64,000 bases of DNA. Source: Escherichia phage p000y. The translations under genes were made by a program, and so were the position numbers. Of the stretch, positions 7,058-50,698 are shown piece after piece. The notes beneath the pieces are model-generated. The model searched no databases and was not told where the DNA came from. It worked only from the letters and a program-made list of their open reading frames with translations. The stretch lies in sequence record MK047718.1. One strand, given 5' to 3'. Each line of letters starts with the position of its first letter. The first letter of the stretch is position 1.

Positions 7058-8500
7058 GTGGTAGAAATTATTTTGTCTCATCTAGTATACGACCAGGCTT
7101 ATTTTTCTAAGGTCTGGCCTTATATGGATTCTGAGTATTTTGAGCGTGGACCGGCAAAAAATGTCTTTAAAATTATAAAGAGCCACGTTAACGAATATAA
7201 TGCAATGCCATCTATCAATGCGTTAAAGGTGGCTTTAGATAACAGTTCTTTAACTGAAGCCGAATATAAAGGAACTTCAGACCTAATTGAAAAATTGGCT
7301 GATACTCCTGAAGACCATGAGTGGTTGGTTAAAGAAACTGAGAAATATGTCCAGCAAAAAGCGATGTATAATGCTACATCCAAAATCATTGAGATTCAGT
7401 CTAATGCTGAACTACCTCCAGAACAACGTAACAAGAAAATGCCTGACGTAGGAGCTATTCCTGATATTATGCGTCAAGCACTTTCAATTTCGTTCGATAG
7501 TTATGTTGGACATGACTGGATGGAAGACTATGAAGCACGCTGGCTTTCTTATCTAAATAAAGCACGTAAGGTCCCGTTCAAATTAAACATTCTTAATAAA
7601 ATCACCAAAGGTGGCGCAGAAACAGGTACACTGAACGTTTTAATGGCCGGTGTTAACGTTGGTAAATCTTTAGGCCTTTGTTCACTTGCTGCAGATTATC
7701 TTCAAACAGGACATAATGTTCTTTATATTTCCATGGAAATGGCTGAAGAAGTTTGTGCTAAGCGTATAGATGCAAACATGCTTGACGTATCACTCGATGA
7801 TATCGATGATGGTAACGTATCTTATGCTGAATATAAAGCCAAGATGGAAAAATGGCGTTCAAAAACAACATTAGGACGTTTAGTAGTTAAACAGTATCCT
7901 ACTGGTGGAGCTAATGCTAATACATTTCGTGCATTGCTTAATGAGTTAAAACTTAAGAAGAACTTTGTGCCATCTGTAATCATGGTTGATTACTTAGGTA
8001 TTTGTGGGTCTTGTCGTATCAGAGTTTACACTGAAAATAGCTACACATTAGTTAAAGCTATCGCAGAAGAACTTCGTGCATTAGCAGTAGAATCTGAAAC
8101 AGTTCTATGGACTGCAGCTCAAGTAGGACGTGCAGCATGGGATGCTTCAGACATGAACATGAGTGATATCGCAGAATCGGCAGGTTTACCAGCAACGGCA
8201 GATTTCATGTTGGCTGTAATTGAAACCGAAGAACTTGCACAAGCTGAACAACAACTTATCAAACAAATCAAATCACGATACGGCGATAAGAATAAGTGGA
8301 ATAAATTCCTGATGGGTGTACGTAAAGGCAATCAGAAATGGGTTGAGATTGAGCAAGAAGGCATGAACACACCTAACACAGTAAATGAAAACGCAGGTGC
8401 TCAGATGCGTCAGGCAGAGGTGAATCGTACGGAACGCGTAGGTAAAGCCAAAGCAACACGTGCTGACCTAGATAGCTTAGCCAATGAGTTAAAATTTTAA
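7058..8500 (+). CDS. 41: gp41 replicative DNA helicase (DnaB-like)
   Basis: GTG start with AAGGAG SD; 480 aa, near-identical to T4 gp41 over long stretches (MVEIILSHL..., GVNVGKSLGLCSLAADYLQ). Confidence 0.95.
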   Translation: MVEIILSHLVYDQAYFSKVWPYMDSEYFERGPAKNVFKIIKSHVNEYNAMPSINALKVALDNSSLTEAEYKGTSDLIEKLADTPEDHEWLVKETEKYVQQKAMYNATSKIIEIQSNAELPPEQRNKKMPDVGAIPDIMRQALSISFDSYVGHDWMEDYEARWLSYLNKARKVPFKLNILNKITKGGAETGTLNVLMAGVNVGKSLGLCSLAADYLQTGHNVLYISMEMAEEVCAKRIDANMLDVSLDDIDDGNVSYAEYKAKMEKWRSKTTLGRLVVKQYPTGGANANTFRALLNELKLKKNFVPSVIMVDYLGICGSCRIRVYTENSYTLVKAIAEELRALAVESETVLWTAAQVGRAAWDASDMNMSDIAESAGLPATADFMLAVIETEELAQAEQQLIKQIKSRYGDKNKWNKFLMGVRKGNQKWVEIEQEGMNTPNTVNENAGAQMRQAEVNRTERVGKAKATRADLDSLANELKF

Positions 8501-48676: not shown

Positions 48677-48992
48677 TATTAAACCGGTTGATGAGGCCGG
48701 TTTATCTGAACAAGAATTAGCAGTAAAACACGATAAAGATGATATCGCTAAATTGCTTGACCGACAAGAAAACGGATTCATTATCGAATCCATGGTTGAA
48801 CAATTTGGTATGTCTTATTTAGAAGCAACAACTGCTTTCTTGGAAGAAAATTCTATTCCAGAAACACAATTTGCTAAATTTATTCCTACAGGAATTGTTG
48901 AAAAAATTACAAGCGAAGCAATTGACGAAAACATGCTTCGCCCATCAGTTGCTCGTGGTGAAAAAACTAATACGTTAGATTTCTTATTATGA
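48654..48992 (+). CDS. 33: gp33 late transcription co-activator
   Basis: MTQFSLSDIKPVDEAGLSEQELAVKHDKDDIAKLLDRQENGFIIESMVEQFGMSYLEATTAFLEENSIPETQFAKFIP matches T4 gp33 as recalled. Confidence 0.9.
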   Translation: MTQFSLSDIKPVDEAGLSEQELAVKHDKDDIAKLLDRQENGFIIESMVEQFGMSYLEATTAFLEENSIPETQFAKFIPTGIVEKITSEAIDENMLRPSVARGEKTNTLDFLL

Positions 48993-49642
48993 TTAAAATA
49001 CGCATGCCTCCTGATGGAGAACGTTATATTAACGGAAAATCGGTATACAAACTATACTTGATGTGCAAACAACATTTTAATGGTCGGTATGACGTAATCA
49101 AATATAACTGGTGCATGCGTGTTTCGGATAATGCGTATCAAAAACGCCGAGATAAATATTTCTTTGAAAAACTAGCAGAGAAATATAAATTGAAGGAACT
49201 CACCTTGATATTCATAAGCAACTTAGTTGCTAACCAAGACGCATGGATTGGTGAGATATCAGACGCTGATGCATTAGTTTTCTATAGGGAATATATTGGA
49301 CGTCTCAAACAAGCTAAAGAGACGTTTTCTGAAGACGTACGTAACATCTACTATTTCAGTAAGAAAGTTGAAGTTAGTGCGCTTCAAGAGATATTTGATT
49401 ATAATAACAACGTTCAGTCGAGCTACATATTCAAATTGCTACAAAGCAATATAATTTCATTTGAGACTTTCTTATTGTTAGACTCGTTTTTGAATATTAT
49501 AGATAAGCACGACGAACTCACTGACAATTTAGTGTGGCAAAATTATTCTACCAAATTAAAGGCATATCGAAAAATACTTCAAATCGATGGAAATGCTGCT
49601 AAGAAATTGTTCATAGAAACAATCAAATCATGTAAGTATTAA
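48989..49642 (+). CDS. 59: gp59 helicase loader
   Basis: 217 aa (T4 gp59 is 217 aa); ATGA overlap with 33; position before 32. Confidence 0.85.
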   Translation: MIKIRMPPDGERYINGKSVYKLYLMCKQHFNGRYDVIKYNWCMRVSDNAYQKRRDKYFFEKLAEKYKLKELTLIFISNLVANQDAWIGEISDADALVFYREYIGRLKQAKETFSEDVRNIYYFSKKVEVSALQEIFDYNNNVQSSYIFKLLQSNIISFETFLLLDSFLNIIDKHDELTDNLVWQNYSTKLKAYRKILQIDGNAAKKLFIETIKSCKY

Positions 49643-49671
49643 GCTTTATTTCTTGTGTGTTAAAATTACTT

Positions 49672-49679
49672 TATAAATA
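49672..49679 (+). promoter_or_regulatory. Late-promoter-like TATAAATA upstream of gene 32
   Basis: Exact TATAAATA about 90 nt upstream of the gp32 ATG. Confidence 0.45.
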
Positions 49680-49689
49680 AATCATACCA

Positions 49690-49767
49690 GCTACGAGGTA
49701 TAAGTGTCGTAGCAACCAACTGTAAATAAATTAAATAATTTAAATAATCTAAATAAAGGTAAATATA
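49690..49767 (+). promoter_or_regulatory. Gene 32 translational operator (autoregulatory leader): hairpin plus repeated TAAATAA elements
   Basis: Stem GCTACGA/TCGTAGC (49690-49713), then five direct TAAATAA-like repeats with about 9-nt period running up to the ATG; matches the known architecture of the T4 gene 32 leader. Confidence 0.6.
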
Positions 49768-50670
49768 ATGTTTAAACGTAAATCTACTGCTGACCTCGCT
49801 GCTCAAATGGCTAAACTGAACGGTAACAAAGGTTTCTCTTCAGAAGATAAAGGCGAATGGAAGCTGAAGCTAGATGCATCCGGTAATGGTCAAGCGGTAA
49901 TTCGTTTCTTGCCAGCAAAAACTGATGATGCACTACCATTTGCAATTCTTGTTAACCACGGTTTCAAGAAAAATGGTAAATGGTATATTGAAAATTGCTC
50001 TTCTACACATGGTGATTACGACTCTTGTCCTGTATGTCAGTACATTAGTAAAAATGACCTGTACAATACCAACAAAGCTGAATATTCTCAACTGAAACGT
50101 AAAACTTCTTATTGGGCTAATATTCTGGTTGTTAAAGACCCTCAAGCTCCAGATAATGAAGGTAAAGTATTTAAATATCGTTTCGGTAAAAAGATTTGGG
50201 ACAAAATCAATGCAATGATTGCAGTTGATACCGAAATGGGTGAAACTCCAGTTGATGTTACTTGTCCGTTTGAAGGTGCTAACTTCGTTCTGAAAGCTAA
50301 GCAGGTTTCTGGTTTTAGCAACTATGACGAATCTAAATTCTTGGGTCAATCTGAAATTCCTCGTATTAATGACGAAGCATTCCAGAAAGAACTATATGAC
50401 CAGATGGTAGACCTTACCACTTTGACGGCTAAAGACCAGTTCAAATCCTTTGAAAAATTAAATGAATCTTTCGCTAAGGTTCTTGGTACTGCCGCTCTTG
50501 GTGGTGCAGCAGCCGCAGCAGCTTCTGTTGCAGATAAAGTTGCTTCTGACCTTGACGATTTTGATAAAGACATGGAAGCCTTTAGTTCTGCAAAAACTGA
50601 AGATGACTTCATGAGTTCTACCTCATCCTCTGATGATGGTGACCTCGATGACCTGTTAGCTGGTCTATAA
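49768..50670 (+). CDS. 32: gp32 single-stranded DNA binding protein
   Basis: [36 protein letters not shown]...[12 protein letters not shown]... near-identical to T4 gp32; operator-like leader upstream; terminator downstream. Confidence 0.95.
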
Positions 50671-50676
50671 TAAATC

Positions 50677-50698
50677 GGGAGACTTCGGTCTCCCTTTT
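50677..50698 (+). terminator. Intrinsic terminator after gene 32
   Basis: GGGAGAC-TTCG-GTCTCCC followed by T4. Confidence 0.7.

Follow-up and report, generated by a model that had tools for sequence, protein, structure and literature searches.

A lengthened repeat allele of the RB69-type gene 32 operator in Escherichia phage p000y

Background

The gene 32 operator is a textbook example of a protein that senses its own free concentration by binding cooperatively to an RNA lattice. In phage T4, gp32 nucleates at a pseudoknot and then spreads cooperatively over the A/U-rich ribosome-binding region (PMC3014915). The gene 32 leader of phage RB69 is also an autogenous translational operator (Borjac-Natour, Petrov and Karam 2004, PMC535899). 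Its repression has been shown to be autogenous and translational both in vivo and in vitro. Deletion of the leader increases plasmid-directed gp32 synthesis approximately 4-fold, and purified gp32 represses translation in vitro (PMC535899).

The RB69 leader consists of a structured 5' element, a putative pseudoknot that is sensitive to RNase V1, and a 45-nucleotide unstructured segment, A(-1) to A(-45), that is hypersensitive to DMS and DEPC (PMC535899). Footprints of RB69 gp32 cover both parts. At low protein concentration it strongly protects U(-14) to G(-61) of RB69 RNA, whereas T4 gp32 gives strong protection of the same RNA only from C(-42) to G(-61). The bases G(-10) and G(-9), which belong to the RB69 Shine-Dalgarno sequence, are within the gp32-protected region (PMC535899).

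The DNA analyzed here is a stretch of 64,000 nucleotides from Escherichia phage p000y (MK047718.1), which is referred to as the window. Positions are counted from its first letter, and the features described lie on the plus strand. A previous sequence-only reading of the window had proposed that a hairpin followed by five tandem TAAATAA repeats forms an autoregulatory operator ahead of gene 32. Positions 49684 to 49770 are indeed very probably the autogenous translational operator of the gene 32 mRNA in an RB69-like T-even phage. This RB69-type operator has been characterized before, and it is found here as a previously unrecorded allele with four exact repeat units and one variant unit.

Gene 32 and its leader in the window

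The open reading frame at 49768-50670 encodes gp32 (300 amino acids), which would be both the regulated product and the repressor. It matches Pfam model PF08804 (E = 6e-61) and, over its full length, the T4 gp32 structure 8gme (E = 1e-158). It is 92% identical to RB69 gp32, and residues 1-75 of the two proteins are the same. The cooperativity motif KRKST (MFKRKST...) and the zinc-binding Cys/His cluster are both intact. These matches bear out the earlier assignment of the region as a gene 32 leader.

Upstream lies the gp59 open reading frame, and gene 59 stops at 49642. Mosigvirus (RB69-like) genomes match the locus at 97-98% identity. The minus strand of the region contains just a 46-amino-acid frame with a TTG start and a promoter-like match that scores no better than shuffled sequence. 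The gp59 frame is 217 amino acids long in the window (48989-49642), in T4 and in other Mosigvirus records, and the RefSeq entry for RB69 (NC_004928) gives gene 59 as 528 nucleotides and 175 amino acids (7074-7601). Judging from these lengths, the start of RB69 gene 59 is probably annotated too far downstream.

From the late-promoter box at 49672 to the ATG, the RB69 leader is identical to that of the window minus one 9-nucleotide unit. RB69 has three exact units in a track of 45 nucleotides, and the window has four in a track of 54 nucleotides. The extra unit is a tandem duplication of UUAAAUAAU; the second copy of the duplicated TTAAATAAT occupies 49740-49748, and the first is at 49731-49739. 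By our mapping, the RB69 gp32 footprint from U(-14) to G(-61) takes in every UAAAUAA unit along with the pseudoknot's 3' half. The proposal of an autoregulatory operator draws its support from the near identity of this leader to one whose operator function has been demonstrated. By analogy, the window allele would be expected to repress translation as the RB69 allele does.

A pseudoknot at the 5' end of the leader

The arms GCTACGA (49690-49696) and TCGTAGC (49707-49713) form the perfect 7-base-pair stem that had been described, with a 10-nucleotide loop. A hairpin of this kind is statistically ordinary by itself. The window contains 90 perfect 7-base-pair stems with loops of 3-12 nucleotides, 23 of which have at least four G/C per arm. 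The significance of this hairpin comes instead from its position, its conservation and its covariation.

The stem is real, but it is merely one half of a larger fold. On the evidence of covariation, the 5' element is an H-type pseudoknot that starts at 49684, 6 nucleotides before the start noted earlier, and the reported hairpin is its stem 2. In stem 1 (5 base pairs), AUACC (49684-49688) pairs with GGUAU (49697-49701), a strand located inside the hairpin loop. A single A (49689) makes up loop 1. Stem 2 joins GCUACGA (49690-49696) to UCGUAGC (49707-49713), and loop 2 is the 5-nucleotide AAGUG (49702-49706), which varies from 3 to approximately 7 nucleotides in other leaders. These dimensions are those expected of this fold: a stem 1 of 4-6 base pairs, a 1-nucleotide loop 1 and a 7-base-pair stem 2 that abuts stem 1. 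ViennaRNA assigns -9.2 kcal/mol to the stem 2 hairpin and -3.3 kcal/mol to the stem 1 duplex.

Leaders for comparison were collected from IMG/VR contigs by a gp32-anchored locus search, which was used instead of a pseudoknot pattern scan of IMG/VR that returned one contig only. Eight distinct T4-like leaders entered the covariation count: the window/RB69 leader, T4, one T2-type and five others. Two further leaders (L031 and L032), in which stem 1 is plausible but ambiguous, were excluded. Over the 12 pairs, 95.8% of cells can pair, although this count uses fixed-length stem segments in a register set by hand, which favors the structure somewhat. MAFFT could not supply it, as the variable length of loop 2 led the program to misplace the 3' strand of stem 1. 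Pairing falls to 26-43% when the partners are slid by one to three columns, and the covariation score is reached by none of 500 shuffles.

Changes on both sides are found in seven of the 12 pairs, three of them among the five pairs of stem 1 and four among the seven of stem 2, which is 100% paired. The 5' strand of stem 2 occurs as GCUACGA, GCUAUGA, GGUGCAA, GGUGUGA or GAUGCAA, in every case with a matching 3' arm. The loop 1 A is invariant in all eight aligned leaders. Both stems thus covary in this set of diverged leaders.

A scan of positions 49300-50000 against Rfam 15, with E values up to 10, yields four hits at chance level (E = 3-8.5), none of them on the leader, which stays below the gathering threshold of every Rfam 15 model. 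An invariant AGG (as GAGG or AAGG) that resembles a Shine-Dalgarno sequence is present at the junction of stem 2 and stem 1 (49695-49698) in all eight leaders, and the structural model predicts that folding of the pseudoknot would make it inaccessible. A candidate mini-frame within the pseudoknot (GAGG...GUG UCG UAG) was dropped, as it is missing from the T2-type and other leaders.

Database records offer a different account of the same hairpin, as a rho-independent terminator of gene 59 with the A/T repeats serving as mere intergenic spacer. In OL960576, the homologous hairpin (L084, 491-524; approximately 49690-49722 of the window) is annotated 'rho-independent terminator' from WebGeSTer, and several other records give a 'terminator' in the region. 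However, the stem is followed by AACCAACUG, so that the U-tract of an intrinsic terminator is missing, and a terminator scan skips the gene 59-32 hairpin yet calls a real one at 50677-50694. A terminator here would also abort the transcripts that start at the late-promoter consensus directly upstream. Furthermore, the loop bases pair and covary with upstream bases, an interaction that a terminator does not need, and the region lies within the RB69 gp32 footprint (PMC535899). Termination is a most improbable function for this hairpin. The label in OL960576 looks like a mis-annotation, and it may recur in other records.

The A/U-rich track and its repeats

The pseudoknot is followed by a track of 54 nucleotides (49714-49767; 87% A+U) that presumably serves as the lattice on which gp32 binds cooperatively. 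It begins with the linker AACCAACTG, which lies between the TCGTAGC arm and the first TAAATAA unit, and an ACUGU motif common to most T4-like gene 32 leaders is found at its start (49719-49723). The Shine-Dalgarno sequence, AAGGU (49756-49760), is located 7 nucleotides before the AUG and is the same in RB69. The segment next to the pseudoknot therefore has the form expected of a gp32 lattice, namely at least 40 A/U-rich nucleotides with repeats of the UUAAA or UAAA type and the ribosome binding site included.

Folding predictions agree with the earlier description of the track as unstructured. Its minimum free energy is -0.7 kcal/mol, and its mean unpaired probability of 0.736 is about 2.3 standard deviations above that of random 57-mers from the window (0.539 +/- 0.084). 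The 4-base-pair hairpin that the RB69 paper places around the Shine-Dalgarno sequence (AUCU...AGGU) is assigned +0.4 kcal/mol by ViennaRNA.

Exact TAAATAA units start at 49723, 49732, 49741 and 49750 and are separated by the spacers AT, TT and TC. This array of four UAAAUAA units in the RNA (49723-49756; spacers AU, UU and UC) is reported by Tandem Repeats Finder at 49723-49757 with a period of 9, 3.9 copies and 88% matches. A fifth unit exists only in the variant form TAAATAT (UAAAUAU in the RNA; 49760-49766), between the Shine-Dalgarno sequence and the AUG and 10 nucleotides past the fourth exact unit. Of the five tandem copies at a 9-nucleotide period that had been described, four are exact and in register, and the last departs from the rule in both sequence and spacing. 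As had been stated, the repeats run into the start codon: the variant unit ends at 49766 and the ATG is at 49768.

TAAATAA as such is not over-represented, with 25 copies in the 64-kb window versus 32.9 expected. It is the regularity that is unusual, as the earlier reading had remarked. Nowhere outside the array does any 7-mer in the 64 kb occur four or more times with a constant period of 8-12 nucleotides, and only two of 300 first-order Markov windows contain any 7-mer at least three times at such a period.

Repeats rich in UAA could bind proteins other than gp32, and might serve mainly as a site for the general translational repressor RegA or as an A/U-rich translational enhancer bound by ribosomal protein S1. 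A/U-rich leaders are generally good S1 ligands, and each unit carries two UAA triplets. In SELEX, RB69 RegA selected mainly AAUAAUAAUAAnA, and sites for RegA adjoin the AUG and are A/U-rich and free of structure (PMC3014915), a composition and position that fit the track. However, by eye the track matches the SELEX consensus at best with approximately 3 mismatches in 11, and gene 32 is not named among the RegA-repressed messages in the same review (PMC3014915). Purified gp32 by itself reproduces RB69 repression, which is also seen in plasmid clones lacking RegA, and RB69 gp32 footprints span the repeats (PMC535899). It is very unlikely that the repeats act chiefly through RegA or S1. Binding of these proteins may add to gp32 control, but it cannot replace it, because purified RB69 gp32 represses.

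Copy-number variation among relatives

Close relatives of p000y carry three, four or five exact units. The three-unit form, with spacers AT/TC and a 45-nucleotide track, is found in RB69, SA79RD and IMG/VR contig L004. Four-unit forms exist with three different sets of spacers. These are AT/TT/TC in the window (track of 54 nucleotides), AT/AT/TC in mogra (54) and PhAPEC2 (56), and AT/TC/TC in SSE1 (54) and LNA2 (55). Five units with spacers AT/TC/TC/TC are present in Shf125875 and SHSML-52-1, whose tracks are 63 nucleotides long, that of SHSML-52-1 being judged by match length. The arrays of F2 and moskry are degenerate, with one exact unit and tracks of 43 and 46 nucleotides. The three four-unit alleles are duplications of the RB69 allele in three registers, which implies at least three independent 9-nucleotide events.

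The 93-nucleotide allele of the window has no exact match in 50,697 phage records. The best matches are 98.9% identical at equal length (14 records), and among the best 60 matches listed at least 38 have the RB69 length or one base more (84-85 nucleotides). Although F2 (L087, MN864145) is classed as a Tequatrovirus, it carries an RB69-type pseudoknot and upstream leader ahead of its degenerate track. This combination suggests a mosaic exchange at the gene 59-32 junction.

The T4 group varies a different unit, UUAAA or AUUAA, which is 5 nucleotides long and is present in about two copies in T2-type leaders, three in T4 and five in HY03 (L089). Tracks in this group (T4, L002; L010; L011; L014; L089) are 33-48 nucleotides long, and those of all pseudoknot leaders range from 33 to 63 nucleotides.

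This variability raises the question of whether the repeats matter as repeats. Gp32 might simply require a long, structure-free, A/U-rich lattice next to the pseudoknot, in which case the period and the copy number would be products of neutral slippage. In the RB69 group, track lengths of 43, 45, 46, 51, 54, 55, 56 and 63 nucleotides do not fall into quantized steps, F2 and moskry manage without an array, and the T4 group has changed the copy number of a different 5-nucleotide unit from two to five. Contig L004 encodes a gp32 that is 100% identical to that of the window, yet it has only three exact units, so copy number is uncoupled from protein sequence. On the other side, RB69 gp32 protects its own repeat region and T4 gp32 only C(-42) to G(-61) (PMC535899), a difference that suggests some lineage-specific sequence preference. 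Short motifs spaced about 9-11 nucleotides apart also recur at this place in very distant T4-like phages, as described below. We regard neutral slippage as a serious contender that falls a little short of an even chance. It is compatible with the element being an operator.

Motif tracks in more distant T4-like phages

Among 26 distinct T4-like gene 32 leaders, ACUGU is the most enriched 5-mer from -70 to -1. It occurs 40 times versus 1.8 expected, a 22-fold enrichment whose independence is overstated because the leaders are related to one another. Its usual context is AACUGU[U/A]AA (L005-L029). Lineages without the pseudoknot carry ACUGU three or four times at spacings of 10-13 nucleotides, and some copies lie within the 3' end of gene 59 in different reading frames. 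Single-lag autocorrelation in the closer T4-like phages peaks at a lag of 10 (0.42 versus 0.27 in controls).

Distant environmental T4-like contigs (L036-L083), whose gp32 is approximately 40% identical, instead carry AUAC(A/G) motifs about 70 nucleotides upstream of the gp32 homologue. These are 35-fold enriched, again with independence overstated by relatedness, and are mostly 8-11 nucleotides apart. Apart from a single exception, the remainder of each locus (approximately 3.7 kb) holds no other cluster of them. Upstream of the motifs are a near-consensus TTGACA-17-TAATAT promoter and a conserved AUUAUGAA..GUGGACA block. Autocorrelation at single lags is flat in this group, where periodicity rests solely on the motif spacings. 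Consensus folding of the distant leaders finds no analogue of the pseudoknot and yields only a hairpin between the -35 and -10 hexamers of the sigma-70-like promoter.

These tracks could be instances of an ancient design conserved among T4-like phages, in which a motif track with a 9-11-nucleotide period lies between a 5' element and the gene 32 Shine-Dalgarno sequence, the spacing reflects the gp32 register and the number of units, changed by slippage, is an evolutionary dial for the gp32 set-point in the cell. We consider such a design unlikely. Its motif may differ by lineage: UAAAUAA in the RB69 group, AAAACUGU in several enterobacterial T4-like groups, AUAC(A/G) in the distant environmental phages and two copies of UUAAA in T4. 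If it were true, the three independent 9-nucleotide duplications in Mosigvirus would be examples of the dial at work.

Transcription through the leader

A candidate MotA-type middle promoter, GCTT-N15-TATAAT, is located within gene 59 (49381-49405). The site matches the consensus, and GenBank OL960576 labels its homologue a T4-like middle promoter. Transcripts from this promoter would carry the whole leader.

The T4 late-promoter consensus TATAAATA is found at 49672-49679. It is kept in RB69 and other Mosigviruses and is annotated as a late promoter in OL960576. The box ends 4 nucleotides upstream of pseudoknot stem 1. Late promoters have a -10-like element at the usual -10 position (PMC7892883), so late transcripts should start at approximately 49684-49686, at or just inside stem 1. 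Such a start may change autoregulation late in infection. The late box is similarly near stem 1 in L022-L024, and it is more than 20 nucleotides away in T2-type leaders and in L018.

The RNase E site at -71 in T4 lies within GA/AUUAUGCC, and no equivalent motif adjoins stem 1 in the window. The AAUUA nearest to stem 1 is at 49664-49668, upstream of the late-promoter box.

Downstream of gene 32, a terminator-like hairpin, GGGAGACTTCGGTCTCCC, is followed by TTTT (50677-50694) and would end the gene 32 transcript. It is called by the terminator scan and annotated in OL960576. The hairpin is perfect (GGGAGAC-TTCG-GTCTCCC) and has T-rich flanks on both strands, and from its sequence it looks like a bidirectional intrinsic terminator.

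A model for repression

The operator would work as follows. The 5' part of the leader is predicted to fold into a compact H-type pseudoknot. When gp32 is in excess over the available single-stranded DNA, it would bind at or next to this structure and polymerize cooperatively in the 3' direction along the 54-nucleotide A/U-rich track. Coverage of the Shine-Dalgarno sequence and the AUG would then block binding of the 30S subunit. Gene 32 mRNA is unusually stable, and the leader probably has a part in this as well.

In this scheme the UAAAUAA units would be the lineage's counterpart of the T4 UUAAA units and would keep the track free of structure. RB69-type gp32 probably has a modest preference for their sequence. 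Exact repeats are dispensable, given that F2 and moskry have the same pseudoknot and one exact unit. The site size of gp32 on single strands is usually quoted as approximately 7 nucleotides, and set against a 9-nucleotide period this leaves the picture of one unit per monomer unsupported.

The array presumably grows and shrinks in 9-nucleotide steps by replication slippage, and the one unit gained relative to RB69 would have lengthened the lattice from 45 to 54 nucleotides. Von Hippel and colleagues reportedly described gp32 repression with a cooperative-lattice model. Under that model a longer lattice saturates at a lower concentration of free gp32, and the extra unit would slightly tighten repression. 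The extra unit may shift the gp32 set-point of p000y.

The window does not alter the principle of gene 32 control. Its value is in the natural allelic series of lattice lengths to which it belongs, and in the possibility that periodic motif tracks are a general feature ahead of gene 32. RB69 relatives provide three-, four- and five-unit alleles, with tracks of 45, 54 and 63 nucleotides behind an invariant pseudoknot, and the T4 group provides a parallel series of two to five UUAAA units. Such a series is a ready test case for the quantitative model, long in use, that makes the threshold for repression depend on lattice length. The analysis also corrects the database records that call the pseudoknot hairpin a terminator.

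Comparison with known systems

Translational repression near a ribosome-binding site is also exerted by S15 on Escherichia coli rpsO and by the M13 gene 5 protein on the gene 2 mRNA, and the S15 operator likewise uses a pseudoknot. However, the proteins and RNAs of these systems are unrelated to those of gene 32, and they operate without a cooperative lattice of tandem repeats.

The T2/T6 pseudoknot, solved by NMR (2TPK, cited in PMC3014915), is much closer. It is of the H type, with coaxial stems, a 7-base-pair stem 2 and a 1-nucleotide loop 1, and a T2-type leader (L014) aligns with the window pseudoknot position by position. The solved structure is of the T2/T6 type rather than the RB69 type: T2 has UGACC/GGUCA as stem 1 and a longer loop 2.

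The leader comparison proposed by the sequence-only reading places the window next to RB69, from which it differs by a single 9-nucleotide unit, and shows the same architecture in T4 with UUAAA units. The T4 operator has the same position, with its pseudoknot approximately 67 nucleotides upstream and UUAA(A) repeats behind it (PMC3014915). Its stem 2 differs from that of the window by one compensated pair (U-A to C-G). Loop 1 is an A in both leaders, the linker (A)CCAACUGU is common to them, and in each the Shine-Dalgarno sequence falls within an A/U-rich track. The T4 pseudoknot overlaps the segG open reading frame with its 5' portion, and RNase E cleaves every transcript at -71, whereas in the window the TATAAATA box abuts stem 1. 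The repeat unit is the 5-nucleotide UUAAA in T4 and UAAAUAA plus 2 nucleotides, 9 in total, in the window, and the tracks built from these units are 39 and 54 nucleotides long, respectively.
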